Shown piece by piece: positions 16,298 through 64,000 of a stretch of DNA of 64,000 nucleotides (the first letter of the stretch is position 1; every line of letters starts with the position of its first letter). The DNA lies in the IMG/VR virus record IMGVR_UViG_3300045988_110026, one strand, 5' to 3'. This DNA is from a virus. The position numbers and the translations under genes are program-made. Below the pieces are notes generated by a model. It was not told the DNA's origin. It saw only the letters and a list, made by a program, of their open reading frames with translations, and ran no database searches.

Positions 16298-16361
16298 AAA
16301 TATGTATCGTATTATATCTATACAAATATATTGTGTTAAATTTTATGATTATATTTTTACG

Positions 16362-49905: not shown

Positions 49906-50356
49906 GCAAGTATTTAAAAACGACTCTCATTATAGTTGCGAAGTTCTCCACCTTAACCCACTCATGAGCTACTGCTCTAAGTACAGATGTTTCATATGTT
50001 GGAACATTGTCTTCTTCAATCATCTTACAAGAGGCCAGAACTCCTTCGGTCGGCTTTAGTCCGCGGTCATGCAGCTGGCAGAGACCGTCTGGCCGGCGGA
50101 ACACGCACCACCCGTCTTTCTCTGTTGGCTGGATCATCGCTATTGGTTTTTCTTTCACTGCAAGATACCCCACCATCCACATTGTCTCTTTTAGCCTGTC
50201 AGCATATCCGGCATCTATGATGGCTTCTATGTCTTTTGGCGTACCAATACAAGAAACTTTACACATGTTCTTGCATTTATCACATGTACAAGGCTGCTCC
50301 CATCTATTATGATCTATGCCAACCAACTTCTTTATCCGTTCTACTTCCTTTTTCAT
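49883..50356 (-). CDS. YkgJ/UPF0153-like Cys-cluster (Fe-S or Zn) protein
   Basis: CTCDKCKNMCK plus DGWCVFRRPDGLCQLHDRGLKP...C resemble the CxxCxxCC...dg.C.iy..RP..C pattern. Confidence 0.45.
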   Translation of the reverse strand: MKKEVERIKKLVGIDHNRWEQPCTCDKCKNMCKVSCIGTPKDIEAIIDAGYADRLKETMWMVGYLAVKEKPIAMIQPTEKDGWCVFRRPDGLCQLHDRGLKPTEGVLASCKMIEEDNVPTYETSVLRAVAHEWVKVENFATIMRVVFKYLHENERGK

Positions 50357-50357
50357 A

Positions 50358-50639
50358 TTATACTGTCTCTGTTAGTTTTTCGTAATACAATTTCATTTCC
50401 GGTGAAGCGTATTCCATGAATGCTTCGAATAAGTGGGGTACCTCTATTATCATATTCACATTACAACCTTCTACCTGTGAAAGATATTCAAGATCATTAC
50501 TGTATGAACACGTTACATGAGCTCCTACATTAAACACATGTAAATCTAATCTCGCATATTCCATACATAAATCTAACGCTTTAAACAAGCTCTCTACCTC
50601 AATCTCCTGAAATAGGTCTATAAACATCCTTAAATCCAT
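50358..50639 (-). CDS. hypothetical protein
   Basis: 93 aa. Confidence 0.4.
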   Translation of the reverse strand: MDLRMFIDLFQEIEVESLFKALDLCMEYARLDLHVFNVGAHVTCSYSNDLEYLSQVEGCNVNMIIEVPHLFEAFMEYASPEMKLYYEKLTETV

Positions 50640-51022
50640 TATTTCACCACCCTTTCCACGTGTTTAATTAATACTACCGCCATTCCCTTACCGGTTTTTA
50701 TCGCACATTCTGACCCTTTTATCCATTCTACACACCCTACATACTTTTCCGTAGCATGAAATCCGGGATTGTATTTTCCAGATGTACTAAACTCTACCGT
50801 ATCCCCTACCTTTAGATCATCAAAAGCGATAGACCATGTGGTCCAAATTCTGTCATGTCTCCCAGGCTGAATGGCTCCGATTACGCCCTTCTTACGACCG
50901 TTTTTTATTGCCCTTAGTATTATCTTTCTGTCACCTTCGATAAGGCTGCAAAAGCGCCCGTAAAAGGTCAAATCAACCTGTTTTCCTCCTATTTCTTCTC
51001 TTATTTTTGTTATTCTGTTCAT
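50639..51022 (-). CDS. hypothetical protein
   Basis: 127 aa. Confidence 0.45.
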   Translation of the reverse strand: MNRITKIREEIGGKQVDLTFYGRFCSLIEGDRKIILRAIKNGRKKGVIGAIQPGRHDRIWTTWSIAFDDLKVGDTVEFSTSGKYNPGFHATEKYVGCVEWIKGSECAIKTGKGMAVVLIKHVERVVK

Positions 51023-51266
51023 TTTCTGATTTTGTTTTATTTTTTTCTTTGTTTTTTCTATCTTCTATAGAAGATGATAATAACATTATCTTTTCTATGT
51101 TACTTTTTGACTGTAAAAAAGAATCGCATTTCATTACTACTACCACCTTCTTAAGCTCCCCATTATCGTATAGCGATACACGCATCATGTTTTGCGCCTC
51201 GTCCACTATCAGACCTGGAGTAGTCTTAACCATTTTACGTAGCTTATTATACTCCGGTCTTTCCAT
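50973..51266 (-). CDS. hypothetical protein with Lys/Asn-rich basic tail
   Basis: 97 aa; 50-bp overlap with the downstream gene. Confidence 0.35.
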   Translation of the reverse strand: MERPEYNKLRKMVKTTPGLIVDEAQNMMRVSLYDNGELKKVVVVMKCDSFLQSKSNIEKIMLLSSSIEDRKNKEKNKTKSENEQNNKNKRRNRRKTG

Positions 51267-51558
51267 TTCCTCTGTTTATTACTCTATAGTATTTATCTTT
51301 ATCTCCCTCTTCCAACTTCTCCAGATAGAAAATTCCATCATGTAAATGAGACAAACAAAACCTGTATCCATATTTCTGCACTCTTCTTACATGATCCCGC
51401 AGTCTTATTTCTTCACTTTTGTCTTGTACTTTGATCTTAATACTGTCTCCTTCTTTGATTGTGTATAAAATAGTTTGAATCTCTTCTTTTTTCATATTAT
51501 AAAATAATTTAACGGCAGCACCTATACTCACGCACCAATACTGCCTTATGTTTAACAA
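51247..51558 (-). CDS. hypothetical protein
   Basis: 103 aa. Confidence 0.4.
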   Translation of the reverse strand: MLNIRQYWCVSIGAAVKLFYNMKKEEIQTILYTIKEGDSIKIKVQDKSEEIRLRDHVRRVQKYGYRFCLSHLHDGIFYLEKLEEGDKDKYYRVINRGNGKTGV

Positions 51559-52368
51559 TTAAATACTTAACTCTTCAATGGTCAAGCCTTTTTCTTCTGC
51601 CCACTTTAACATCGTACATAATTCTGTTTCTGATTTATATTTCGGATCACGCCACGCCCATCCGTATTTATCCAAAACATAGTGATATAATTCGTCGGCT
51701 TCTGCTGTATGCACGTCATTGAATAAATACTCCGAACCTTCCGGTATAAGCATTTCTGTTGTTGCGAAATCGGAATACAACAAACATTCGTAAGCATATT
51801 CTGTTATTTCACTCCATGCTTCTCCGGCTTTAAATCCAAATTCTTTTACAAAAGCCAAAGTTAGATACATATTTAATAGTACTGCCGGATCATATCCTGA
51901 ATTTGGATTCTTTTCTATTATTTCTTTCTCAAACTCCTTTAGATTTTCGGGCCCGAAAAATATGTAGCCCTGAACTGATTTATAATTTACCTCAGCATAT
52001 CTTCTACATCTATCATCATCGATTATCTTACCAATGTTGGATAACAGCATCTGTCGCCACCCATCACAGAACTCCACCTCTACCTCCATCCAATCAGTAT
52101 CATAGTTATACTCTCTTGGGTGTCCGACTGATATCACCTTTATATCCTTTACACCATATACTAAAAGACGTTCTTTAACCTCGTCCGCCCATTTTTGCAC
52201 ATAAGGTATGAACGCATTACAATAAGAATCAAAATCAAAATTTGATTCTTCTTCATATTCCGGCATCTCATCATATTCCTGTGAAAAGAAATGACGCGGG
52301 TCTGCTACTGTTTCATAAAAACTTACGTTAATGAAACAAAATTCGTTGGTTGTTGTTTTTAATATCAT
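51559..52368 (-). CDS. hypothetical acidic protein
   Basis: 269 aa. Confidence 0.5.
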   Translation of the reverse strand: MILKTTTNEFCFINVSFYETVADPRHFFSQEYDEMPEYEEESNFDFDSYCNAFIPYVQKWADEVKERLLVYGVKDIKVISVGHPREYNYDTDWMEVEVEFCDGWRQMLLSNIGKIIDDDRCRRYAEVNYKSVQGYIFFGPENLKEFEKEIIEKNPNSGYDPAVLLNMYLTLAFVKEFGFKAGEAWSEITEYAYECLLYSDFATTEMLIPEGSEYLFNDVHTAEADELYHYVLDKYGWAWRDPKYKSETELCTMLKWAEEKGLTIEELSI

Positions 52369-52619
52369 AACTTTTTGTATTTACGTACATTTTTCTTGCC
52401 ATAGAATCTACACATGGCACGAATCTGACTATAAAATACTTTTGTCCTCCTGGCCTCAAAGTATTTAAACATTTCTTCATTCTTTGTCTCCCACACGTAA
52501 TCCGTTTGAGAACTTATGTGATTTTTATCTTTGCGTGAATAATGGTAATATGATACCACAACACGTTTCGCACCATTCTTTACAGGTACGATATTCACAT
52601 CTATGTTATTATCTGTCAT
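52365..52619 (-). CDS. hypothetical protein
   Basis: 84 aa. Confidence 0.4.
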   Translation of the reverse strand: MTDNNIDVNIVPVKNGAKRVVVSYYHYSRKDKNHISSQTDYVWETKNEEMFKYFEARRTKVFYSQIRAMCRFYGKKNVRKYKKL

Positions 52620-52653
52620 ATTATTATTGTTTTATGTATTATACAAATACAAA

Positions 52654-52681
52654 GAGCGCATACCTTCACAGGCCGGCGCTC
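52654..52681 (-). terminator. hairpin gagcgc...gcgctc; on the minus strand it is followed by TTTGTATTTG
   Basis: read directly; downstream of minus gene 52764..52973. Confidence 0.4.
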
Positions 52682-52763
52682 CTTTCAATAAAAATGAAAA
52701 AACTAACATTACATAAACATATTGTTTTCTGCTCTTTATTACAATACTTTTGTTCCGCAATTA

Positions 52764-52973
52764 TTATATCTTCCGTACTCTTTTTTTCGTATCATTCAAG
52801 ATTTCAAAAACCATCTTCTTGTGATCTTTGTTTGGTAACTTGTCTTTAACGGCCGATATTACACCCGCTATAGACGTAAAACCTGAATCTGTTATTGAAC
52901 ACAGCAATAATCCCCTTTCGTCGTCTGTGCTTATCGCTGACGCCTTTATAATATCATTCTTGTATATTCTCAT
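52764..52973 (-). CDS. hypothetical protein
   Basis: 69 aa. Confidence 0.4.
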   Translation of the reverse strand: MRIYKNDIIKASAISTDDERGLLLCSITDSGFTSIAGVISAVKDKLPNKDHKKMVFEILNDTKKRVRKI

Positions 52974-53379
52974 AATCTTTCGTTTTATTATCTACAAACT
53001 TATCCATATCGTCTCTTATTCTTTTTAGCACTCCGGCTATAATTTCCGGCATCTCTCCTTCGGTACGGTTCAGAGTTTCTATCACCCCATCAATCCTACC
53101 AATTTGACGCCATAAGAAATTGGCGTCTTTCGTATTAAATTTCCCCATCATGTTTTTACAGTAAACAACTTGCTTTTTCAAACACCAGTCTTGCGATTCT
53201 GAGAGTGAACACCGTTCGGAGTCGTTAAAAAATATACAATCTTTGCAGAACATAAGAGGGTCTTCGTCGTCACCAACCACTTTGACATCATACTCTATGC
53301 CATGCAATTTTAATCTAAATACATCTCCTACTTCTTTAGAAGACAAATCCATGTCCGGACCGAATGTTATTACTTCCAT
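52954..53379 (-). CDS. hypothetical protein
   Basis: 141 aa. Confidence 0.45.
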   Translation of the reverse strand: MEVITFGPDMDLSSKEVGDVFRLKLHGIEYDVKVVGDDEDPLMFCKDCIFFNDSERCSLSESQDWCLKKQVVYCKNMMGKFNTKDANFLWRQIGRIDGVIETLNRTEGEMPEIIAGVLKRIRDDMDKFVDNKTKDYENIQE

Positions 53380-53400
53380 ATAATTATGTTTTATTGTTTG

Positions 53401-53460
53401 TGAAATGCCCAGAATCGAACCAGGACCGACACATACATACCGGCACGCCGCGTCATCTCC
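53401..53460 (-). tRNA. tRNA-like element A (non-canonical, ~60 nt; T-arm CCTGG-TTCGATT-CTGGG)
   Basis: Minus-sense ...GGAGATG...CCTGGTTCGATTCTGGGCATTTCA-CA in a 175-bp gap. A 6/7-bp acceptor-like pairing is possible, but I could not fold D or anticodon arms by hand. No CCA. Confidence 0.35.
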
Positions 53461-53554
53461 TCTATGATACAGAAATAGACATGCCTATTCTCACGAACCG
53501 ACATGCCAAAACCCAAAAACTTAATTTGATGAATAAAATAGATTAACAAAAATA

Positions 53555-53869
53555 CTATCCTAATTCTTTTATAATATCTTTCACAATATTCAACCTTACC
53601 TCCTTCGTTTCTGGGCTAATACAACCAAACCACCCATAAAACGTTCTTGTTTCCTCTGGTTCTGTAGCCATACCTATCTTCTCCTCCAATTCCGGGAAAT
53701 ATATTCTCACCATTTCGTCTGAACGAAACTCATAAATATTTTTATGTTTTTTGAAATACATAAACACTACATTTCTTAACGCAACACATATGTATTCCCC
53801 ATCCTCTAACCTATCAATCATCTCATATACCTTTTTCCAAATGAATAATCGCTCTTCTTTTGTAAACAT
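53555..53869 (-). CDS. hypothetical protein
   Basis: 104 aa. Confidence 0.45.
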   Translation of the reverse strand: MFTKEERLFIWKKVYEMIDRLEDGEYICVALRNVVFMYFKKHKNIYEFRSDEMVRIYFPELEEKIGMATEPEETRTFYGWFGCISPETKEVRLNIVKDIIKELG

Positions 53870-53883
53870 ATCTTTCTTTATTT

Positions 53884-54225
53884 TTATGGTATTATTTGAC
53901 TGTATGCAGACTTTTCCATGTACACAACACTATGTTCCTGTCCAAGTATTTTCTTTGCTGCTTCTTTCTTTATCGCGCAATATCTCCCTGTACGATACGG
54001 ATTCTTTTGATCTGATCCATCCTCAACTTCGATAATAAAACAACCTCCGTCATCTATTATCTTTTTGCAATTGTCACATATTTCTCCCGTGCATATATGA
54101 TGCGGCGCCTGCCCTTTGATGTTATTCCCTAATAAAGCAATCCCCATCTCTTCACCGCATACTATGCATAGTTCTATGGATGGATTCAACCCATGCTCTG
54201 GATGCAATACAATACCGTCTTTCAT
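53884..54225 (-). CDS. Cys-rich zinc-binding protein
   Basis: CIVCG...CTGEICDNC. Confidence 0.45.
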   Translation of the reverse strand: MKDGIVLHPEHGLNPSIELCIVCGEEMGIALLGNNIKGQAPHHICTGEICDNCKKIIDDGGCFIIEVEDGSDQKNPYRTGRYCAIKKEAAKKILGQEHSVVYMEKSAYSQIIP

Positions 54226-54626
54226 TTTCTATCCTCCTTTATTAATTCTATTATAAACTTTTTATCTTGTTCCCACAATGGCAGCCCTTCTTTTACTGTG
54301 TATGCCACTGTTTCCCTCTCTCCTATTAATCGCACGGCAATCTCTCTTGCTTTCAAGTCATCCTCCTCATGCGATTTGTTTATTAAATCATAGGCACATG
54401 ATTCCACCTTTTGCCTTTCGATTATTATCGAACCCATTAACTCGCTTATATGCGATCCTAAAAACGATAAGACATTAATAGCTTTCCCAATATCATTTGA
54501 AATAGCACTTGCTAAATACATCTTATCCATATACTCCGGCAAAGCCTCGTATGCCGTTTCTATGTTTTTATACTGATTTTCGTTTACCTCCCTTTTAATC
54601 AGTTCTTCAAATTCTTCTTTTAACAT
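54222..54626 (-). CDS. hypothetical protein
   Basis: 134 aa. Confidence 0.45.
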   Translation of the reverse strand: MLKEEFEELIKREVNENQYKNIETAYEALPEYMDKMYLASAISNDIGKAINVLSFLGSHISELMGSIIIERQKVESCAYDLINKSHEEDDLKAREIAVRLIGERETVAYTVKEGLPLWEQDKKFIIELIKEDRK

Positions 54627-54650
54627 GTTCTTCCCTATTTTAATGTTGTG

Positions 54651-54730
54651 TGAGATCGCCGGAATCGAACCAGCCTACCGCACCATGAATCCCATAAAGC
54701 AAGTGCTCCGATCTTCGCAGATGGGAGCAC
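54651..54730 (-). tRNA. tRNA-like element B (T-arm GCTGG-TTCGATT-CCGGC) preceded by a 7-bp hairpin
   Basis: Minus-sense GTGCTCC-(14 nt)-GGAGCAC hairpin (54703-54730), then ~52 nt ending ...GCTGGTTCGATTCCGGCGATCTCA-CA. Not foldable by hand as a full tRNA. Confidence 0.35.
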
Positions 54731-54959
54731 TTTGTCTAAAGCATAAGAAAATTAATGAAGAAATTTTTCTCACTTACGCCATAGCATCTAAAATAGCTAT
54801 CAGCACTATTTCTATGACAAACATAATAGAAAATATCTTAAATGCCTTTTTCATATCGCTATCTCCTCCTTTTTTTTTTTTAGTTCCACAATAAACTGTT
54901 CCGGCTCTGCTCCGAACTACGTTCCACCTACAACCGCAGGCCTTAGCCCAAGGCGCCGC

Positions 54960-55220
54960 CTACTCCCCCTCTATGGCAGCCTGTTCGTACCTACAACACC
55001 AGTCTCCATCTATACAACTATTACTACGCGATAACAAACATTTATCCTTATAATAATCATAAAAAATACACCTCTCACAACTGTAATCCCTAATTTCTAC
55101 ACAGCTAACTACCTTAGCATATACTATACCATCACTGCCTTCTATTCCTTTCACCCCAAAAATAGAACCTTCTCCCTCCTTACTCAAATCTAAGTCAGGC
55201 GCAAAGTCATATACGTTCAT
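54960..55220 (-). CDS. hypothetical Cys-containing protein
   Basis: 86 aa. Confidence 0.45.
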   Translation of the reverse strand: MNVYDFAPDLDLSKEGEGSIFGVKGIEGSDGIVYAKVVSCVEIRDYSCERCIFYDYYKDKCLLSRSNSCIDGDWCCRYEQAAIEGE

Positions 55221-55294
55221 GTTGTTTATGTTTTAATTGTTATACATTCCGATTACTACTAATCTATAGAATATAGTTTTCAACTCTCAACCTA

Positions 55295-55462
55295 TTGAAT
55301 TTTGTAGAATAAACTCACATTATGCCGTTTTAAAGCACTGTAAGTCTTAATTTTGTAGGAAAACCCTACATAATGCTGTTTTAAAACGCTGATCTGTTGA
55401 ATTTTGTTGGCAGGAACTACATAACGCTGTTTTAAAACGCTGTAAGTCTTAATTTTGTGGGA
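55295..55462. repeat. tandem direct repeats, ~51-bp unit x ~3.3
   Basis: Units start at 55295, 55347, 55397 and 55449 (TTRAATTTTGTDG...ACATWAYGCYGTTTTAAARCRCTG...). Each holds a CGCTG-TTTTAAAA-CGCTG core. Confidence 0.7.
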
Positions 55463-55524
55463 AGGGAGTGCCCTCCCTCTCCCCCTCTCCAACTCCCGCT
55501 AATCCTCCGGCTTTCCGCATAGAA

Positions 55525-55656
55525 CCCACGCCCTACCGCCTCACTACCGGCATACGGAGAGCGCTACAAGCTTATACTCTGGCATGGAGTATGGGGGATT
55601 TGGAGATAATATCATTCCATAGAGAGAATAGAGAGCCTTCAGCCCACGCCCTACCG
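55525..55656. repeat. GC/pyrimidine-rich island with 14-bp direct repeat CCCACGCCCTACCG (55525-55538, 55643-55656)
   Basis: Local composition shifts sharply (CCCTCCCTCTCCCCCTCTCC at 55471-55490), and there is an exact 14-mer repeat 118 bp apart. Confidence 0.45.
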
Positions 55657-56154
55657 TCTGCTCCTCCTATCAAGATAGATATTCAAAACTATAATCAAAG
55701 CCAAAAACAAAAAGCAAAAGACCATCACAATATTATACTGATCTGGTCCGTACTCTAACATAGACCTTACTCCAACCGATAAAAAATACAGGTCAGCTAC
55801 TAATAAAAACCACCACATAAAATAAAAAATTTACAATAAGTATGTCCGAAAATACGGGTATTATAAAACCTAACTAATTGATAATCAAGCATACCTTATT
55901 TTTAAGAAAAATACAATAAGCCCAATTTTCAATCCATAGAGACGAAAAAGGCGGCATCCGACACCATATTTTGGGTCAGAAAACCGCCTACAGTTTCGTT
56001 TTAGACCAATTTTAACGACAATATATAGACAAAATACCGGCATTATATCCAAACAGCCTTATTTTTGTTTCGATTTGAACCAATATACGCATTCCTACCT
56101 TGTTTGTCGTCGTGTTCACTCTCAGAATATCCTACCCGTAAATAGAAAGAGTAG

Positions 56155-56197
56155 GATACAAAAATAGGGCTGCTCCGATATTCGAAACAACCCTATT
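56155..56197 (-). terminator. hairpin AATAGGG...CCCTATT, with a T-run on the minus strand
   Basis: read directly; downstream of minus gene 56203..56409. Confidence 0.45.
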
Positions 56198-56202
56198 CCT
56201 AT

Positions 56203-56409
56203 TTAAATACTGTTTATATTTTCCTTAACGTACGTTCTTGACGTATGAACTTTACGCTTGCACTTTTCTTTTCCGGTATCGGAATGATACGCCTCTTTGA
56301 GATCACGATACAACATAAATTCACGATACGCTCTTTTCCGCTTTTCTTTGGCTTCTTTCCTGGACAGACCGCGAACATCTACCATGTAAGATTTAAATTT
56401 CCTTTCCAT
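56203..56409 (-). CDS. small basic protein
   Basis: 68 aa, Lys/Arg-rich. Confidence 0.4.
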   Translation of the reverse strand: MERKFKSYMVDVRGLSRKEAKEKRKRAYREFMLYRDLKEAYHSDTGKEKCKRKVHTSRTYVKENINSI

Positions 56410-56431
56410 TTTCTTTATGCTTTAATTATGA

Positions 56432-56602
56432 TTAACCCCAGCGGTTAAGTGCTTCGATATAGAAACCTTCCGCCTCTTTGTACTCACTTTCGCTCAATGT
56501 TTCCACCGTCTCGATATAGTTACGCAATGTTATTTTTACGCAACTGTTTTTAGATTTATTGAACGCTTCAATTAAAGCGTTGATCATTGCTTTCTTTTCC
56601 AT
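56432..56602 (-). CDS. small hypothetical protein (56 aa, below ORF-track cutoff)
   Basis: Hand-translated MEKKAMINALIEAFNKSKNSCVKITLRNYIETVETLSESEYKEAEGFYIEALNRWG; sits 22 bp upstream of the next minus gene. Confidence 0.35.
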   Translation of the reverse strand: MEKKAMINALIEAFNKSKNSCVKITLRNYIETVETLSESEYKEAEGFYIEALNRWG

Positions 56603-56627
56603 GCTATTATATTATTTATAATTTAGA

Positions 56628-56688
56628 GGTTGCTCCGGAATCGAACCGGACGCGCATTCCTATCCTATAGAGATTTTATGCTACAACC
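56628..56688 (-). tRNA. tRNA-like element C (61 nt between acceptor-like halves; T-arm TCCGG-TTCGATT-CCGGA)
   Basis: Minus-sense GGTTGTAGCATAAAATCTCTATAGGATAGGAATGCGCGTCCGGTTCGATTCCGGAGCAACC-TCTA. Shares AAAATCTC with the tRNA-Cys anticodon region but appears to lack a D-arm. Confidence 0.35.
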
Positions 56689-57161
56689 AACAGCCCGTAA
56701 TTAGTACGTAGTTCTTGCGTACAGGCTCGTACTATGTTGTTATTATATTTTCCGTCCGCTACACAACTTAGCCACAAATAAAGGCGATTGTGTCCTTGCG
56801 TTTTGATACGGCACGTCCCTACATGGTAGGCTACATGCTTGTACCCTGTAATTTAATCTACAGCCTTGTTCTATTTTTCGTGTAAGCAAGTAAGACACGT
56901 TTCGATCTGGAGATAAACCTCGTACAACGGCATGTTTTCCAAACTGTAATCACATACCTAACATAAACCATACCTATTCGGATAGTCCATGCAGTAATAC
57001 CAGCCCTTTAATTGCCAACGGCAAGGGCAACGGTATATCTATCTCCAATATGTAAAATAACTCTCTGTTTTGTCAGCTTCAGTCTAAAGCATACGCGGGA
57101 CGTGCACCCACCAACAACGGCGCACAGACGCGTTTAAAGGTACGCGCCCAACCTTGTTTTT

Positions 57162-57764
57162 TCACTGCTGATTACTTTCGTGTGCTAAATACTCAGATAC
57201 GCACTTTGCAACGGTGCGGATAGAATAAGACTTAATCTTAACGGCCACATAAGTGGCTTTATATTCGTCCGTCTCTTTAACGATCCATTTTGCACTACTT
57301 TTCGTTTCCAACGTTTCCGCGGTTGCAAATCCGAAAGGCTTATACTCACCGCCATAAACTACATTATCGGAACACCAATCAGCCGTTTTTGCCTCAATTC
57401 CTTTCTCTTTATCTACTTTGCTATCCTTATATACTTTAGAGTATAGGGAAAACTTAACAAAGGTATCATCAACTTTTGGTAACATTTGGCTACACACAGC
57501 CACCAGGCGTTTTTTATCCTTGGCCAGAGATGCAACCTTTACAGCGTATTCTGCCGGTATTTCCAAGGCCTTGCAAATAGCCTTTAGATCAGCTCCATTA
57601 GCAAATAGAGCGTTGTACAGTTTAACAGCACCTACCAAATTTGCAGCATTTTCTTTGATAACGGCATTCTGTAGTTTGTTTACATTTTTTTTCGTAATCA
57701 TATCCCAATATATTTTAATTGTTAAACAAATGATATTCAAATTAATGACCCACAAAGCAGGCAA
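57162..57764 (-). CDS. hypothetical protein (start possibly at internal Met, 57701)
   Basis: 200-aa ORF; Ala/Lys-rich; follows a ~550-bp repeat-rich leader. Confidence 0.5.
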   Translation of the reverse strand: MPALWVINLNIICLTIKIYWDMITKKNVNKLQNAVIKENAANLVGAVKLYNALFANGADLKAICKALEIPAEYAVKVASLAKDKKRLVAVCSQMLPKVDDTFVKFSLYSKVYKDSKVDKEKGIEAKTADWCSDNVVYGGEYKPFGFATAETLETKSSAKWIVKETDEYKATYVAVKIKSYSIRTVAKCVSEYLAHESNQQ

Positions 57765-57927
57765 TTACAGATACATATATAGCCAGCCCAACGGGCACAC
57801 TATATAGGATCACTATGTTAACTCGTAATCTCTCTCGATCACGACGCAAATATACGACATTTATCAATATTACATATATATATGCTATATTTTTTTTGTT
57901 AACTTGTATTAATTTCGATTCTATTAT

Positions 57928-58076
57928 CTGATTATCAGTAAGTTACAAAAAACACAAGAGCAGTATTACACGCGTACATTAATATGTAGGATATATTCTT
58001 ATTTAAGTGGCTTATAATCAATAGGTTATAATAACACATTGATTATCAATAATTTAAATAAGTGATTGATAATCAG
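57928..58076. promoter_or_regulatory. cluster of TTGATWATCAA-type palindromes (57928-57938 CTGATTATCAG; 58039-58049 TTGATTATCAA; 58065-58076 TTGATAATCAG)
   Basis: Read directly. A fourth perfect copy, TTGATAATCAA, is at 55878-55888. Confidence 0.45.
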
Positions 58077-58097
58077 AGAGTTTGTGGGTTTGAGGTA

Positions 58098-58149
58098 AAA
58101 CGCGTTTCCGGTTTTCCAGCGAAGGGGGTGCGGGGGAGAAAACGCGTTT
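58098..58149. repeat. two copies of AAAACGCGTTTC(C)GG (palindromic core AAACGCGTTT) 42 bp apart
   Basis: 58098-58107 and 58140-58149. Confidence 0.45.
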
Positions 58150-58181
58150 CGGGGGCGGGAGGTTCGTGATAGGTACCCCCT

Positions 58182-58262
58182 CTCTCCCATCACATAAACC
58201 TCTTTCTCATATCTCTCCCATCACATAAACATTTCACCATTCCTCTCCCTCATCACATAAAA
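58182..58262. repeat. three phased 18-bp iteron-like direct repeats CTCTCCCATCACATAAAC (starts 58182, 58213, 58243; the third has a 1-nt insertion)
   Basis: about 31-bp periodicity, read directly. Confidence 0.55.
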
Positions 58263-58310
58263 ATATGGGGAACCTATCCAAAGTTCCCCATACTTATTTT
58301 ACGACGGTAA

Positions 58311-58703
58311 TTATTTACTTTCCCATATTAGTTTATCTTCGGCTATTCCGATCTTTACTTCCTCGCACTTTCTCCCTATCCATCCATTGAGATACGAGAA
58401 TGGTTCTGAGTTTTTTACTTCTTCTCCTAAGAAATTAAAAGCTTCAGTAGAAACATGGGATGCTTCATGGCAAACTGTTTCAAAATCAATTATTTTCTTA
58501 TTAAGAAACCATATCAAAAATCCCGTATTAGGATTTAATTTACACCCTCCGTATGGAACGGATACAGTTACAGCCTTGCTATTATCTACGTAACTAAAAT
58601 CGTTATTGAAACATTCTACCATGCCAGATACGTCTTTTCCTACGTATATCCACAGATTAAAAGGATAGACTTCCGGATAGAACTGATATAATTCACGCTT
58701 CAT
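58311..58703 (-). CDS. small HExxH-motif protein (putative zinc metallopeptidase-like)
   Basis: VCHEASHVSTEAF; 130 aa. Confidence 0.45.
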   Translation of the reverse strand: MKRELYQFYPEVYPFNLWIYVGKDVSGMVECFNNDFSYVDNSKAVTVSVPYGGCKLNPNTGFLIWFLNKKIIDFETVCHEASHVSTEAFNFLGEEVKNSEPFSYLNGWIGRKCEEVKIGIAEDKLIWESK

Positions 58704-59656
58704 TTCGATAAAAGTTTTTTACTTTCAAGGAAGTCCTTAAACTGGTCACTTGATACGTCTATAACGAATCCAGCAGCACCAGCATGTCCTCCACCACCGA
58801 ATCTCTTACTTACCTCACAGCAATCTACGCTGTCTTCTACGCATTCGTAAAGAGAGAACCTAACCTTACCACATGGCATGATACAAAATGGCATCAGAGC
58901 TTTAATTTTTCTACCGTCTAACCAGTCCGGTGTAAGAGAATCAAATACCTTAGAGCTAAATTCAGCGGTATTCATAGCCACTACCTTCACCTCGTCGACG
59001 TAAGCTTCGAACGAGTACCTACTTACCTCATCTTCGTTTTTACAAGCCATGTAATTAATTATAGCACGTCCTTCTTTAGCAAGATCATAAAAAATAAGAT
59101 CAATTTCATTGTCTTTCATGTTTTCTTTAAAGTGATCATATAAATACGACAATGCAATCAATACATTGAGTCTTATTTTTGATCTCAAGGCATACTGGAC
59201 AGCTACTACCGTATCCCAGCCTAAGCCAGATTCTTTATTCCACACATCGTAGTCTGACAGGCATCGGACGATCGCCGGCACCTTCCCCATCAGCAGGTCC
59301 GAAGCCAGTGCGCACGCACCGACACCGACCCTCCTCAACCCTGGAACTACGAACCCCCATGTCTTACTGTCCTCAATAATTCCCTTGTGGTGATCTATCC
59401 ACATCAGGCTCTTCCCTTCATCAAGCCACTTTTTGAAAACAGTTTTAGAATCGGCTCCAAAAGACACGTCAAGAACATAAACAACATCTAAGTCACGTAC
59501 TTGGTCAACAACTTTCTTAACATCATCTTCATACGAATACGGGATATAAACAACATCCTTGTTTTTACTGTTTTCGTACATGGTTGCGATGGCTGCCGAT
59601 ACAACGCCATCTAAATCCGATTTATGATAAACTATCGCTGTTTTCTTTACTTTCAT
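58700..59656 (-). CDS. DHH-DHHA1 phosphoesterase (NrnA/DhhP-like)
   Basis: HKSDLDGVVSAA (motif I DxD), WIDHHKG (DHH), C-terminal GGGHAGAAGF (DHHA1 GGGH). Confidence 0.75.
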   Translation of the reverse strand: MKVKKTAIVYHKSDLDGVVSAAIATMYENSKNKDVVYIPYSYEDDVKKVVDQVRDLDVVYVLDVSFGADSKTVFKKWLDEGKSLMWIDHHKGIIEDSKTWGFVVPGLRRVGVGACALASDLLMGKVPAIVRCLSDYDVWNKESGLGWDTVVAVQYALRSKIRLNVLIALSYLYDHFKENMKDNEIDLIFYDLAKEGRAIINYMACKNEDEVSRYSFEAYVDEVKVVAMNTAEFSSKVFDSLTPDWLDGRKIKALMPFCIMPCGKVRFSLYECVEDSVDCCEVSKRFGGGGHAGAAGFVIDVSSDQFKDFLESKKLLSK

Positions 59657-60563
59657 GATATAAGCTTGTATATTTGATACTACCGTCTTTTAATGTTTCT
59701 ATTTTTATAACATCACTATATGAATTAAAATTCTGATCTTTATCAATCCTTATATTCAGCACATCATCTACGGTTGCAGTTTTTCCATCATCGGTTTCAA
59801 TCTTATAAAAATCTTTTAAAGTGATTTTTATATTAAGACCAACCCCATATGGATTTTCAAGGATATATATATGATCGTTGTTTAGAATAACTATTCCTTC
59901 ACTTGTATGTTCTTTGGACAATACATATTCTAAATCAAGATCTTTATCCAAAAATGTAGTAATATCCATATAGTTAATACCGGAATTATAGGCACATACC
60001 TTATCCGAATCAGAGAACTGCCCTGGCAGACCACTGGCGTCCCCGACCATCAACGAACATCCCTTAAGTTGACTGAAGTTCATACCGCGCATTACCGTGT
60101 CTTTACACTTCATAAGAATATCATCAATCATGCCCGTATTAGGCTTCCTCATCGGATTTTGTTCGTCATTTGAATAACACAACCTTTTTTCATATAGGAC
60201 GCCTCTTATACCTCTCTTTACCGCCAGATCATGTACGGACCTCAGTACGTATTCTATCTTAGCTTCAATATCAGCTCCAGAAACAAACCCAGCTTCTACT
60301 CCTCCTTGATTGCTTACGATAGCAAATACCTTAACACCGTTCTCCTGCATGAGGTCAAGAGCCTTATTCACCACATCCATCTTAATCCTCATATCTGTCA
60401 AGTCTGTAGCGAACGTATTCCCAGAAGCGGTTTCTATAAGCGTTCCATCAAAATCAAACAATAATATTCGTTTGGATTTTATATCAATATCTTGTACCAT
60501 ATCATTCTCCTTTCTCAAACTTACTTTTCTTAATCTCTCTCGGAACCAGGCAGAACACACCAT
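59622..60563 (-). CDS. HAD-IIIA phosphatase of PNK-3'-phosphatase / GmhB type with extra C-terminal domain
   Basis: LLFDFDGTLIE (DxDGT), IVSNQGG, RKPNTGM, MVGDASG; about 140 aa of unassigned C-terminus. Confidence 0.7.
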   Translation of the reverse strand: MVCSAWFRERLRKVSLRKENDMVQDIDIKSKRILLFDFDGTLIETASGNTFATDLTDMRIKMDVVNKALDLMQENGVKVFAIVSNQGGVEAGFVSGADIEAKIEYVLRSVHDLAVKRGIRGVLYEKRLCYSNDEQNPMRKPNTGMIDDILMKCKDTVMRGMNFSQLKGCSLMVGDASGLPGQFSDSDKVCAYNSGINYMDITTFLDKDLDLEYVLSKEHTSEGIVILNNDHIYILENPYGVGLNIKITLKDFYKIETDDGKTATVDDVLNIRIDKDQNFNSYSDVIKIETLKDGSIKYTSLYHESKENSDSLS

Positions 60564-60924
60564 CTTCGTCCTTAACCTTCACAATATCATAAACCGCATA
60601 CTGATTATCACCGATATCCCAACCTAACGAAGACAGTACATCACGGAGGTAAATACGTCTATATTTATCACCTTGTTTATTTAATAAAAACGATCTCTCG
60701 TCTTCTACCTTAGAAGGAGCTATATACAAATTAGAATCCAACACCCCTTTAAACTCAGCTCCTTCTTCCATACCAATAATAACCGCATCTTCGATACCCA
60801 TCCATTTCAGATTGTCCACCGATATGGTCATAATCCGATCTTTGCTAATAGAAAGCTTTCTGATTTTAGCTTCTTTTGTCTTAGAACCTACATAGGTTTT
60901 ACTGCTTAAAAAGTTTATCTTCAT
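60502..60924 (-). CDS. hypothetical protein
   Basis: 140 aa; overlaps the downstream gene by 62 bp. Confidence 0.4.
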   Translation of the reverse strand: MKINFLSSKTYVGSKTKEAKIRKLSISKDRIMTISVDNLKWMGIEDAVIIGMEEGAEFKGVLDSNLYIAPSKVEDERSFLLNKQGDKYRRIYLRDVLSSLGWDIGDNQYAVYDIVKVKDEDGVFCLVPREIKKSKFEKGE

Positions 60925-60931
60925 GATATAA

Positions 60932-60989
60932 TGTTTTTAAATTGTATCGCAAATATACGCAATAATATAAACAATACAATTTAAAAACA
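60932..60989. repeat. 16-bp perfect inverted repeat TGTTTTTAAATTGTAT / ATACAATTTAAAAACA with 26-nt spacer
   Basis: read directly; sits between minus genes 61004..62209 and 60502..60924. Confidence 0.55.
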
Positions 60990-61003
60990 ATTAAAATATG
61001 ATA

Positions 61004-62209
61004 TTATAATACAGGTAATTTTTTGAACTGCTCTGGAGCCACCTCGGATATGATTCCACGGAAAGCAAGACGCGAACCGAAGTACGAACTCGCGCTCAAC
61101 GCGTTGCGAGACGCATACGCATACGCCACGCCACTACTCGTATCCGAGCCGCTATAGGAGCGCGCCAAAACAATGGAGTTGCTCGATGTCTGACTATAGT
61201 AATCTGAATAATGCATGGAATCGTTACCGCCAACATTTGTCGGCACCACATCGAAAAACGGACCGTTTTCCGCTGCGATATTCGTTATCCAGCCATTGGA
61301 AGTTCCGGCGTTCACATTGCGAGTCGATCCGTCTGGGTCGGTGATTTTCCAAACTCGGTTGTTGATTTCTACACCTTCAACCCATTCATAGATACCACCA
61401 AAAACCCCTTCCAAACCTAAGCCGCAAACGTACTTTGAACTTTCGTTTTTGGTATCCGCACCGCCGGTTGCGTTGCTGCTTCCCGTTGTTGTAGCCGGAT
61501 TATTATTTGCGCCACCTAATCCTAATACAGATTGAATATTACGTGTTTTGTACTTAGCATACAACATCATAGCAATCACGCAATGTTGTTGAAAATCTAT
61601 CATCTGAAACCCGGTACCACGCGCTTTCGCATAACCTTCAAAATCGTTGAATGATTTTGAAGTTGTAGGACTAACACCACTCCAGCTATATAATCCATTC
61701 AAAGATACATATCCTTTATATGCTCCAACAAGAGATTCCGGAACATGAATGTAAGTGCCATCGATATCATGATCAGCAAAATGATAAAGAAATCTATTAT
61801 CATCCACCTTATACCATTTATACCAAAATTCTAAGAAAACGACCATCACATCACCTTCTGGTCCGGTAAGAACAGCCGGACTGCCATCAAGATATAAGTT
61901 ACTGTCGCTATCTTTTAACCTACATACAAAAACCTCTCTTCCTCCCATAGCGCTCTTGCAAAGAACTCTATAAAATCCACTTGTAATCAACCTGTATAAA
62001 AAATCGCCATCTTCACTTATTGTTATATTAGCCGGATCTGATACAGATTTATCAAAAACTATAAAATTATCAGTAGGGAGATTACCCCCCCCCACTATTT
62101 TATTAAAAAATCTTCTTCTCATGATTGTCTTATATTTTAGGTCAAATATAGATTTTAATTTATAAACATGAATAATATGATTTTCGTGTAATAAACTTAT
62201 ATTTGTCAA
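61004..62209 (-). CDS. protein with FGE-sulfatase / C-type-lectin-fold-like C-terminal region (possible fibre or receptor-binding protein)
   Basis: GVFGGIYEWVEG and C-terminal ...SYFGSRLAFRGII resemble FGE / DUF1566-type motifs; Gly/Ser/Asn/Thr-rich central region. Confidence 0.45.
   Translation of the reverse strand: MTNISLLHENHIIHVYKLKSIFDLKYKTIMRRRFFNKIVGGGNLPTDNFIVFDKSVSDPANITISEDGDFLYRLITSGFYRVLCKSAMGGREVFVCRLKDSDSNLYLDGSPAVLTGPEGDVMVVFLEFWYKWYKVDDNRFLYHFADHDIDGTYIHVPESLVGAYKGYVSLNGLYSWSGVSPTTSKSFNDFEGYAKARGTGFQMIDFQQHCVIAMMLYAKYKTRNIQSVLGLGGANNNPATTTGSSNATGGADTKNESSKYVCGLGLEGVFGGIYEWVEGVEINNRVWKITDPDGSTRNVNAGTSNGWITNIAAENGPFFDVVPTNVGGNDSMHYSDYYSQTSSNSIVLARSYSGSDTSSGVAYAYASRNALSASSYFGSRLAFRGIISEVAPEQFKKLPVL
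62198..62205 (+). promoter_or_regulatory. -7 promoter element TATATTTG (TAnnTTTG) for the + gene at 62241
   Basis: 36 bp upstream of ATG. Confidence 0.45.
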
Positions 62210-62224
62210 GATATTAATTAACTA

Positions 62225-62232
62225 CAAAATTA
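62225..62232 (-). promoter_or_regulatory. divergent -7 element TAATTTTG (minus strand) 16 bp upstream of minus-gene start 62209
   Basis: reverse complement of CAAAATTA read directly. Confidence 0.4.
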
Positions 62233-62240
62233 TTTATGTC

Positions 62241-62897
62241 ATGGCAGAAATGAAAATAGGTTTTGTAACCTTCAATCCAGGATCAGGTGATGGTGATCAG
62301 GCGGTTACCGTATCAGGTGAAAAATACGAAGGTCGTGTACAGCGCACGCAACAAGTAGAATTTGGTGCCGAATCCGGGGGCGTTAAGAAAAGTGCTACCA
62401 TAAACCAATCTCCGGCAGCTGAGTTTGTAAAAATAGATCCTACTGCATCTGTAGGGAAAGAAGGTGGTACTGTAACAATCAACGGTACAAGTAACTCAAC
62501 TAAATTAACGTTCTCTTTAACTCCGGACGAGACTCATCCTCTGACGTTAGAAATACCTGCCAGTTATCAAGCGGCAGGCAAGGCTACCAACAACGGCGCT
62601 GTTATTGCCGACGACCCTGGTGCAACAGGATCTTTCGCTTTCAGTATCGTATTCTCCGATATTGCAGAGAACGCTGATGTAAACGATCTGGTAAATACTC
62701 TTAAGGTGACGGCCTCCGGTGGTCAGACAGCCAATACGGTTATTACCCAGACAGCAGGTGATCCGTTCTTGGAAATAGACAAGAATGTAATCAACTTGGA
62801 TGCAAACGGTACTCCTCAGACTATCAACGTTAATGCAAACATCAAGTGGACTATCACGCAAGCTGTTTCTAAGTTGGTAAGGAAAGTAATGAAATAA
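62241..62897 (+). CDS. Ig-like / BACON-like repeat protein
   Basis: Three beta-rich repeats (VTFNPGSGDGDQAVTVSG; GGTVTINGTSNSTKLTFSL; TPQTINVNANIKWTI). Lone + gene with its own promoter and terminator. Confidence 0.5.
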   Translation: MAEMKIGFVTFNPGSGDGDQAVTVSGEKYEGRVQRTQQVEFGAESGGVKKSATINQSPAAEFVKIDPTASVGKEGGTVTINGTSNSTKLTFSLTPDETHPLTLEIPASYQAAGKATNNGAVIADDPGATGSFAFSIVFSDIAENADVNDLVNTLKVTASGGQTANTVITQTAGDPFLEIDKNVINLDANGTPQTINVNANIKWTITQAVSKLVRKVMK

Positions 62898-62910
62898 CAA
62901 TCACTTACAG

Positions 62911-62948
62911 AAAAAGAAAAGGGACGTCTATTTGGCGTCCCTTTTTTC
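62911..62948. terminator. bidirectional rho-independent terminator (A-run, GGGACG...CGTCCC hairpin, T6)
   Basis: AAAAAGAAAAGGGACGTCTATTTGGCGTCCCTTTTTT. Confidence 0.6.
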
Positions 62949-63197
62949 TATGCATTGTATGTAGTATTTATCTTTTTGCCTACTGACAAAAATCTTTTTG
63001 AAAATCATCTGTTTCCTGATATGGACTCTTTTCCCGTCATCTAATTCCCTCCATATTTCATTAAAGATCAAATCTATTAATTCCATGACCTTCTTATCAG
63101 AGACAAGATTCTTTCTACCGGGACTGACCCATCCATCATCAGTCATCTTACCGGCTATCCTATTAGCTATCCTGCTTAATTCACGTGGGGTGCTCAT
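62928..63197 (-). CDS. hypothetical protein
   Basis: 89 aa; its 3' end overlaps the terminator hairpin. Confidence 0.4.
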   Translation of the reverse strand: MSTPRELSRIANRIAGKMTDDGWVSPGRKNLVSDKKVMELIDLIFNEIWRELDDGKRVHIRKQMIFKKIFVSRQKDKYYIQCIEKRDAK

Positions 63198-63886
63198 TTT
63201 AATATACCTTTAAATATTCTACCTTTTTCACACTGAAGTATGCAGTCTCTCATGGGATGATCCTGTTCATGATCGTCACACATCGGAAATTCTTTTCCAT
63301 AGGGGAAAGCAATGTGCGGGCACTGCGCCCTGAACGCATCCCAGGCCGACTTCCTCACAGCCTCAGCTCCGGCACGCACGCCTTTCTCTCTTTCCTTGGC
63401 CGGGTCAGCATACACGTTTGAAATAGCTCTTTTCTTCCAAGTAAGCATATTGTAGTAAAACTTATCCACCAGTTTCCTACCCACTACATCAAACTTCTGT
63501 CTATGAATTAAAGGTGCTACCTTAACGACGTTCTTCCTATTTTTACTAACATCGACATAAATCAGCCCGGCATAAGACGGAACTTCATTTACGTCAATCA
63601 TATTAGGCGGACAGGCGTAGTAGAAATAGTTTGGAGGATAGCTTATGACACCACCTACCTTAATAATGCCGTCCTTAAGAACTTTATGTTTTTTATCCTT
63701 TTTGAAGTCGTTAAAGAAATCTTGTTTAGACATCTTGACCTCTACTTCATAAGCGTACAATGATCTTGTTATGGCCAGGAAGTCAGATTCCCAATCATAT
63801 ATATGGAGATTGTTAATAACATACATCGGATTACTTAGCAGATCCCTATTAAGGATCTTAAGCATTTGTTGCTCTGGGTAGTTCAT
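63194..63886 (-). CDS. hypothetical protein
   Basis: 230 aa. Confidence 0.5.
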   Translation of the reverse strand: MNYPEQQMLKILNRDLLSNPMYVINNLHIYDWESDFLAITRSLYAYEVEVKMSKQDFFNDFKKDKKHKVLKDGIIKVGGVISYPPNYFYYACPPNMIDVNEVPSYAGLIYVDVSKNRKNVVKVAPLIHRQKFDVVGRKLVDKFYYNMLTWKKRAISNVYADPAKEREKGVRAGAEAVRKSAWDAFRAQCPHIAFPYGKEFPMCDDHEQDHPMRDCILQCEKGRIFKGILK

Positions 63887-63903
63887 TGTCTTACTTTTTT
63901 TAG

Positions 63904-63975
63904 AGGCTTGTGGCGGAATCGAACCGCCCTACGAGATTTTGCAGATCCCTGACTAAACCACTCATCCAACAAGCC
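63904..63975 (-). tRNA. tRNA-Cys (anticodon GCA), 72 nt, CCA not encoded
   Basis: Hand-folded. Acceptor GGCTTGT/ACAAGCC; D-arm with GG; anticodon stem GGGAT/ATCTC with loop CTGCAAA; T-arm GGCGG-TTCGATT-CCGCC; discriminator T. Confidence 0.75.
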
Positions 63976-63978
63976 ATG

Positions 63979-64000
63979 TAGCCCAACCGGGAGTCGAACC
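63979..64000 (-). tRNA. 3' part of a second tRNA, truncated by the window edge
   Basis: Minus-sense ...GG-TTCGACT-CCCGG-TTGGGCT-A: T-loop, T-stem 3' strand, acceptor 3' strand and discriminator are visible. Confidence 0.55.

Follow-up and report, generated by a model that had tools for sequence, protein, structure and literature searches.

The window analysed here is a 64,000-nt stretch of DNA from a human-gut phage of ~151 kb that, to our knowledge, has no cultured host. Its only relative in GenBank at the DNA level is csAssE-Sib (OR575929.1), with 89-91% identity. From 12 to 64 kb the window forms a single minus-strand block, within which lie genes for a helicase, a DnaB-like helicase and an exonuclease. 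In csAssE-Sib the same block continues via tRNAs and genes for dUTPase, SSB, sliding clamp, RuvC and thymidylate synthase, and stops at 17.4 kb in the record, where a divergent switch leads into the structural genes. The crAss-like name and the size of the phage agree with the epsilon group of crAss-like phages, which have genomes of ~150 kb, lack a DNA polymerase and carry a minimal replication set (Yutin et al. 2021, PMC7886860). That study treats the epsilon group and does not describe the region considered here, and our literature search found no mention of csAssE-Sib, nor of tandem repeats or origins in crAss-like phages. A host search over 185,579 species genomes returned one 3.9-kb contig in a MAG labelled Veillonella, which we set aside as probably a binning artefact.

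The locus of interest lies inside the minus-strand block. Read in the minus sense, it consists of a 68-aa ORF, a hairpin, a 55-aa ORF, a GC-rich spacer, a G-rich tract, a tandem array, a short leader and an 86-aa ORF (Table 1). As the first-pass annotation of this DNA had stated, the array is directly upstream, in the minus sense, of a row of genes that begins with an ATG at 55220; the distance to this first gene is 75 bp. The 86-aa ORF is the first of ~40 small minus-strand ORFs in the downstream block. Its product has 514 homologues, none of them annotated (one homologue cluster alone contains 3,819 member sequences), and no Pfam or PHROG match, and its AlphaFold2 model is unusable (pLDDT 46.5). 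Among the ORFs flanking the array (86, 134, 113, 104, 55, 68, 56 and 200 aa) we found no informative Pfam or PHROG match and no DNA-binding domain. The 56-aa ORF, at 56432-56602, gives a weak match to DUF6241.

Table 1. Features of the tandem array and its surroundings, with positions in the window.
Feature	Position	Strand	Basis or remark
51-bp tandem array, three full units and a partial fourth	55295-55462	none	TRF, copy spacing, shuffle maximum 64
Block B core, unit 1, degenerate: GCCGTTTTAAAGCACTG	55324-55340	+	Match with 3 mismatches, logo of 111 units
Block B core, unit 2: GCTGTTTTAAAACGCTG	55375-55391	+	Core search
Block B core, unit 3: GCTGTTTTAAAACGCTG	55426-55442	+	Core search
Block C: TTAATTTTGTAGG	55347-55359	+	Conservation of logo positions 21-35
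Further block C copies	55296-55308, 55398-55410, 55449-55461	+	Block C search
Small hairpin AGGGAG-TGCC-CTCCCT	55463-55478	none	Sequence; overlaps the polypyrimidine tract
Polypyrimidine tract CCCTCCCTCTCCCCCTCTCC (+ strand)	55471-55490	G-rich on minus	Sequence; duplications abut the tract
Perfect mirror repeat CCTCTCCCCCTCTCC inside the polypyrimidine tract	55476-55490		Sequence
GC-rich non-coding spacer	55493-55650	none	As conserved as flanking coding DNA
17-nt direct repeat CCCACGCCCTACCGCCT	55525-55541 and 55643-55659		Repeat search; second copy overlaps the end of the 55-aa ORF
Conserved 55-aa ORF (MWWFLLVADLYFLSVG...), hydrophobic, probably membrane	55651-55818	minus	Comparison of relatives
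Leader from the array to the ATG of the 86-aa ORF, 74 nt	55221-55294	minus	Upstream sequences of 80 loci
First gene downstream of the array, 86-aa Cys-rich protein	54960-55220	minus	ORF calls
Strong hairpin with U-tract, directly after the stop of the 68-aa ORF (56203-56409)	56158-56202	minus	MFE and centroid folds
Second tandem array, period 31, 2.6 copies	58179-58261	none	TRF; 2.8 kb upstream (minus sense)
Least stable 200-bp duplex of the window	57861-58060	none	Duplex stability

The array had also been placed at the head of a 1-kb region free of ORFs, a description that holds only in part. There is no ORF of at least 100 aa in 55221-56202, and the stretch stays closed under TAG or TGA recoding; a reading with recoded stops was rejected, as TAA stops occur in all six frames. 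The stretch does, however, contain the conserved 55-aa ORF, so the array in fact lies in an intergenic space of 430 bp, 55221-55650. All 49 relatives compared have the 55-aa ORF intact and unchanged in length, with 14, 8 and 28 variable columns at codon positions 1, 2 and 3, respectively. Because it is always intact and varies mostly at third codon positions, we regard it as a real small gene; it has no family match. Four other candidate ORFs in the stretch (55468-55758 and 56075-56167 on the plus strand, 55885-56052 and 55800-55892 on the minus strand) were discarded, since they are not conserved in the relatives.

Upstream of the 55-aa ORF, about 340 nt of conserved non-coding DNA separate it, in the minus sense, from the hairpin at the end of the 68-aa ORF. 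This hairpin has a helix of 20 pairs, which is helix 1 of our alignment A1, where it is 99.7% paired, is retained by all relatives and shows only changes compatible with G-U pairing; it is probably the intrinsic terminator of the upstream transcription unit. On the other side of the array, the leader exists in two or three unrelated sequence variants among the relatives, which share only the ~37 nt beside the ATG. Any conserved control element must thus lie in the array or above it. We found no conserved minus-strand promoter for the downstream block; the TAnnTTTG elements of the array are on the plus strand only.

We also searched this neighbourhood for structured RNAs. Rfam reported only two chance-level miRNA matches in 54500-57500 at E<=1, and no family in 50000-64000 at the gathering threshold. 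In a consensus RNA structure of 55463-56205 from 49 relatives, 99% of cells pair and all measures equal those of the shuffle control, the relatives being too close to one another for covariation. In its intron mode, ARAGORN predicted two tRNAs: a 'tRNA(UCA)' with an 824-nt intron that would span the whole array together with the 86-aa ORF, and at 56626-56769 a 'tRNA(CUA)' with a 65-nt intron. Both were dismissed as false positives with poor arms, appearing only at the 85% threshold and when introns of up to 3 kb are allowed. At the sites of these low-threshold predictions are two minus-strand sequences resembling tRNA T-arms (GGTTCGATTCCGG with a flanking stem, at ~54650-54690 and ~56626-56660) to which no callable tRNA belongs; they could be remnants, tRNA-like elements or chance. 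At 63903-63975, ARAGORN calls a tRNA-Cys, in a range for which the Rfam scan at the gathering threshold reports no family. Further observations concern the surrounding DNA. The 86-aa ORF is followed by a highly conserved gap of 333 bp (54627-54959, minus strand) with a run of 12 A-nucleotides and an AGGAGG-like site, and this gap contains a 26-aa hydrophobic mini-ORF, MKKAFKIFSIMFVIEIVLIAILDAMA, at 54774-54854 (minus strand). In some members of the clade, the stretch 56400-56610 has been replaced or has diverged strongly (entropy 0.6-0.95, 23% gaps), which points to a mosaic exchange point between the two tandem arrays of Table 1.

The array itself is a genuine tandem array. The first-pass annotation had described a tandem repeat of ~51 bp, and Tandem Repeats Finder (TRF) agrees: it reports an array of period 51 at 55298-55458, with 3.2 copies, 75% matches and a score of 172, the highest anywhere in the window. 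By comparison, TRF scored no higher than 64 in any of 40 block-wise shuffles of the window, which preserve local composition. An independent repeat search found three 45-nt copies in register, spaced by 51 and 51 bp. The core GCTGTTTTAAAACGCTG with up to 3 mismatches has three matches in the window, all inside the array, where 0.18 would be expected. Neither in the 64-kb window nor in 114 kb of csAssE-Sib is there any further copy of the array motifs (blocks B, C and A+B), so anything that binds them would act at this one locus.

Three conserved blocks make up each unit: CTACAnAAT (block A), cTGTTTTAAAaC-CT (block B) and TkAATTTTGTtGG (block C), joined by linkers that vary freely. In a logo of 111 distinct units from the relatives, TGTTTTAAA is nearly invariant (1.7-2.0 bits) and the CTACA and AATTTTG blocks reach 1.2-1.7 bits, compared with 0.1-0.9 bits in the linkers. 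The units had previously been described as CGCTG-[sequence]-CGCTG around an AT palindrome. The flanking pentamers are found in this form only in unit 3 (CGCTG-TTTTAAAA-CGCTG), since the left flank of the core is TGCTG in unit 2 and unit 1 is degenerate (GCCGTTTTAAAGCACTG). Nor is the core a strict palindrome: across the 111 distinct units it is the asymmetric cTGTTTTAAA, with A in 74 and G in 31 of them at position 9. The block C copies at 55347 and 55449 contain TAATTTTG, a plus-strand match to the Bacteroidota -7 box TAnnTTTG. CRISPR repeats are separated by unique spacers of about 25-40 bp, and the earlier view that the array is not CRISPR-like is correct, as its units are contiguous and its variable linkers of ~7-10 bp are far below spacer length.

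We then compared the array among related phages, using 80 IMG/VR loci retrieved by a search with the 86-aa protein. The array lies upstream of the 86-aa ORF in all of these loci whose contig reaches the site, and also in csAssE-Sib (locus L001, 6392-6545). A scan of IMG/VR with an exact two-core DNA pattern returned 111 stretches; those resembling the window all belong to one clade with 85-95% nucleotide identity, and five loci that did not align to the window were discarded as single chance matches. The core-to-core spacing is 51 bp in 98 intervals and 50 or 52 bp in 21. Where the upstream region is complete, 33, 10, 9, 4, 3 and 1 loci have 2, 3, 4, 5, 6 and 7 cores, respectively, and fewer than two cores were seen in no genome spanning the site. 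The distal boundary of the array, which consists of the last block C followed by GTGCCCTCCC, is identical in all spanning relatives, as is the position upstream of the 86-aa ORF. Absence of the repeats in close relatives, or variability without effect, had been named in advance as evidence against a role; the outcome is mixed, as they are never absent and yet their number is highly variable, from two to seven cores. Since all relatives are 85-95% identical, retention of the array at such depth is weak proof of selection. In csAssE-Sib, an annotated 41-aa hypothetical protein at record positions 150547-150669 (L001 6478-6600) overlaps the distal end of the array and the polypyrimidine tract, and is almost certainly a spurious call.

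The array is moreover the most variable stretch of a 1.8-kb region, with entropy up to 1.45 compared with 0.1-0.3 in the flanks, whereas the adjoining non-coding DNA matches the genes in conservation. In several genomes the units are near-identical (93-96% matches in L011, L028 and L078), indicating recent expansion. Among 128 distinct array sequences of the relatives, we also found 36 distinct near-perfect short tandem duplications, which are independent, recent events. Their periods span 12-39 bp and peak sharply at 21 bp (11 distinct units) and 22 bp (6). They have differing phases and 2 to ~9 copies, and most of them cover block C of the last unit, beside the G-rich tract. They are located at the distal end of the array in L003-L192, at a site equivalent to window positions 55440-55470. 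The microhomology at the junctions inspected is only 1-2 nt. The polypyrimidine tract itself varies in length among the relatives (indels in columns 720-755 of alignment A1), and its G-rich minus strand, judged from its composition and the mirror repeat, may be able to form H-DNA or a G-quadruplex. Replication that stalls at the mirror repeat and G-tract is probably what causes this duplication hot spot.

The array is, in addition, a place where assembled sequences stop. Twenty-two of the 80 IMG/VR contigs, including contigs of 136-155 kb, terminate inside the array or shortly past it, within about 410 nt upstream of the 86-aa gene; two ENA contigs, of 142 and 106 kb, do so 43 and 117 nt away from this gene; and the GenBank record of csAssE-Sib is cut 660 bp from the array. 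This pattern would be expected if the array were a physical landmark of the DNA, that is, a genome end or packaging site, a T5-like injection-stop signal, or a centromere-like partition site such as sopC of the F plasmid, which the array may resemble. However, a further 10 of the 80 contigs end at the unrelated 31-bp array (32 of 80 thus end at one array or the other), so the ends track tandem repeats. The Veillonella-labelled contig also starts at the 31-bp array. Assembled short-period arrays reach at most about 140-155 bp, those of the 36 short duplications about 154 bp, with many contigs ending inside them; this limit would correspond to the read length or the largest k-mer of short-read assemblers, suggesting that the arrays are probably longer in reality. 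Where a contig does resolve the array, the array is internal and its position arbitrary, ranging from 6 to 125 kb in contigs 148-158 kb long. Since contig ends follow both unrelated arrays, and resolved arrays lie at arbitrary internal positions, the ends are assembly breaks, and we reject a physical terminus at the array. The terminase genes are ~20 kb from the array on the circular map (record positions 20.1-23.2 kb), and no ParA or ParB homologue was seen. Of the explanations considered in this work, a physical landmark of any of these kinds is the one we find least probable.

Strand composition changes at the locus, although not in the way that had been anticipated. The proposed check for an inflection of the cumulative GC skew gave a negative answer: the curve falls steadily from 12 to 64 kb without a turn at the array, and the best GC change point is elsewhere. 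There is only a step in AT skew, with the best change point of the block at ~54650 and values of about -0.15 for 12-55.2 kb and about -0.02 for 56.2-64 kb, and a step in the skews at third codon positions. GC3 skew is +0.23/+0.32 downstream of the locus versus +0.10/+0.14 upstream, and AT3 skew is +0.06/+0.11 versus -0.13/-0.06. The third-position difference is present in both the window and csAssE-Sib, among co-oriented genes. The locus is thus a module boundary, and two modules with different codon habits would explain the GC3 as well as the AT3 shift.

A second non-coding region, 57765-58310, is located 2.5 kb upstream of the 51-bp array in the minus sense and includes the 31-bp array. The copy number of the 31-bp array also varies among the relatives, and, as described above, it is likewise a hot spot of contig ends; in the ~114 kb of csAssE-Sib examined, the 51-bp and 31-bp arrays are the only strong arrays. 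The region holds three TGATWATCA motifs, palindromes of 24-32 nt and two AAACGCGTTT palindromes, and a hairpin terminator is found at 58261-58295. With the least stable duplex of the window at 57861-58060, which is a better candidate for an unwinding element than any DNA next to the 51-bp array, this region looks more origin-like than the 51-bp array. TGATWATCA occurs five times in the window (1.6 expected), at 55879-55887, 57929-57937, 58040-58048, 58067-58075 and 60602-60610, and the two non-coding regions account for four of these. The one at 55879 belongs to a stretch that is near-invariant in 49 relatives (minus-strand GATTATCAATTAGTTA) and overlaps a promoter-like TTGATT-N17-TATAAT on the minus strand (55888-55860).

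The array is therefore real, clade-wide and confined to a single locus, with conserved recognition boxes in its units. Our preferred reading, to which we would assign a probability of about 40%, is that it constitutes a row of sequence-specific protein-binding sites that control the block of small genes at the module boundary. The main argument for recognition is the block-wise pattern of conservation. Homogenization acts on whole units, and concerted evolution alone would therefore even out all positions; since conservation is instead restricted to blocks, the boxes are likely recognized by something. Conserved blocks separated by free linkers, as found in the 111 distinct units, are the pattern of an operator array, and point to putative sequence-specific binding sites. 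A phage- or host-encoded regulator could bind the boxes cooperatively and roughly on one face of the helix, where 51 bp corresponds to 4.86 turns at 10.5 bp per turn, so that phasing would be only approximate. The bound array would then control transcription into the small-gene block from 55220, much as a multi-site operator or enhancer does. Whatever its function, the array behaves as a minisatellite: entire units come and go, and stretches of 21-22 bp from the last unit are duplicated again and again beside the G-rich mirror-repeat tract, which probably stalls replication. The first-pass annotation had compared the array to iterons or to a multi-site operator; block-wise conservation, the uniqueness of the motifs and universal retention fit a row of protein-binding sites in general, and the version of this idea that involves an origin is little supported.

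Minisatellite behaviour raises the question of whether the array has a function at all. Slippage or template switching beside the polypurine/polypyrimidine tract could have produced a neutral minisatellite, and several observations agree with this: copy number differs from two to seven cores between genomes that are 85-95% identical, with no visible consequence, as it would in a neutral minisatellite; the array is more variable than anything else in the 1.8-kb region; near-identical units testify to recent expansion; the 36 short duplications among 128 distinct array sequences occur in differing phases; and the unrelated second array 2.8 kb away behaves alike. Yet the block-wise conservation persists in old, diverged units, every genome that spans the site retains at least two cores, and the distal boundary (GTGCCCTCCC) and the position are constant in all spanning relatives, and we therefore consider a functionless array unlikely. 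The same hypermutability could itself be put to use, in that the array and the G-rich mirror repeat would form a contingency control region whose copy number tunes early genes or replication between strains. Replication, or synthesis primed by transcription, would start or stall at the G-tract as a G-quadruplex or H-DNA, and this would repeatedly duplicate, in tandem, 21-22 bp (two helical turns) of the neighbouring binding box. We regard this elaboration as distinctly improbable.

An alternative that deserves more weight, though we still think it doubtful, is that the units are iterons of a replication origin, where an initiator would bind, AT-rich DNA would melt and the host replisome would be loaded. 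Like iterons, the units are repeated directly, in helical phase and in non-coding DNA, but iterons are usually 17-22 bp long and the composite unit of 51 bp is atypical; the perfect 21-22-bp repeats in relatives, with up to seven copies, do resemble classical 22-bp iterons. The setting is also suggestive, as the replication module has its largest non-coding cluster here and the direct repeats lie within it; the genes for the helicase, DnaB-like helicase and exonuclease share the strand, and those for SSB and sliding clamp are found upstream. AT-rich DNA (55680-55930) is 220 bp away and includes windows of 60-100 bp among the 0.5% least stable of the window, GC and GC3 skew are stronger downstream, which is the polarity of an origin and not of a terminus, and the epsilon group is reported to lack a DNA polymerase and to carry a minimal replication set (PMC7886860). 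Against this, the cumulative GC skew lacks an inflection at the locus, the AT3 shift is opposite to the usual T-rich leading strand, and 52.2-63.2 kb contains no DnaA box (TTWTNCACA, with 12 matches in the window versus 8.2 expected). Searches of Pfam and PHROG found no recognizable initiator-like gene beside the array, and the least stable 200-bp duplex, the long palindromes and most of the TGATWATCA motifs are in the other region, 57765-58310. The orientation of the TAnnTTTG elements allows yet another interpretation, in which the units are tandem host-type promoters on the plus strand, with block C as the Bacteroidota -7 box, that would direct an antisense or non-coding transcript into 55463-56200; such transcription could also prime replication, as at T7 or T4 origins. 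Block C is strongly conserved, two of its four copies carry TAATTTTG on the plus strand (at 55348 and 55450), TAnnTTTG is found 16-99 nt upstream of operon starts at 16323, 43184, 57847, 60950 and 62225 (minus strand) and 62198 (plus strand), and the hairpin at 56158-56202 could terminate in both directions. The complete sigma-A promoter of Bacteroidota, however, is TTTG-N19-21-TAnnTTTG, of which the window has two matches and the array none: there is no TTTG 19-21 nt upstream of the boxes, only a TTTT at 16 nt. TAnnTTTG is not enriched in the window (70 versus 68 expected), and its first T is a G in 61 of the 111 units, including every unit of some genomes. Downstream of the array, the plus strand is C-rich (GC skew -0.29) like the antisense strand of the neighbouring genes, carries a conserved ORF on its complement and folds worse than the minus strand (z -3.3 versus -4.9). 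Plus-strand promoters thus appear very unlikely.

Known systems offer partial parallels. Like the iterons of R6K gamma, P1 oriR and lambda ori, the array is a head-to-tail series of direct repeats, is located in non-coding DNA of a replication module and has an AT-rich stretch nearby, and the perfect 21-22-bp repeats in some relatives, at up to seven copies, have the classical size and number. Unlike them, it has a 51-bp composite unit with three boxes, it is accompanied by no recognizable initiator gene, DnaA boxes or skew inflection, and its copy number varies freely among near-identical genomes. Baculovirus hr elements, the p4/p6 sites of phi29 and the family of repeats of EBV oriP are bound cooperatively by a dimeric regulator and may function in transcription as well as in replication. 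The array may be likened to them in having units of tens of bp with an A/T-rich, partly palindromic core upstream of early genes, but hr elements are dispersed, whereas the array occupies a single locus and its asymmetric core is no clean palindrome. The sopC site of the F plasmid has 12 tandem units of 43 bp, each with a short inverted repeat, and is comparable in unit length, tandem order and the inverted repeat in each unit; it differs in that no ParA/ParB-like genes were found near the array and that plasmid-like persistence is not known for the phage. Finally, the control region of vertebrate mitochondrial DNA has tandem repeats beside G-rich conserved sequence blocks and the heavy-strand origin, and these minisatellites share with the array length-variable repeats beside a G-rich, structure-forming tract and recent near-perfect expansions. 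As the replicon is an entirely different one, this likeness is one of mutational behaviour only.

In kind, the array is ordinary for a phage control region; the 21-22-bp duplication hot spot is less so and is mildly notable, being a clean natural case of site-specific duplication beside a mirror-repeat G-tract. Less ordinary, too, is that this locus and the neighbouring 31-bp array break up the assemblies of an abundant gut phage. In practical terms, genome 'ends' reported at either array should not be read as physical termini, and both arrays could be used as length markers for strain typing. If the contingency reading were true, this phage region would be the equivalent of the mitochondrial control region, which also varies in length. 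If, as we prefer, the units are binding sites, the array would be the main switch between two gene modules of a widespread gut phage, and could serve as bait for its regulator or initiator.
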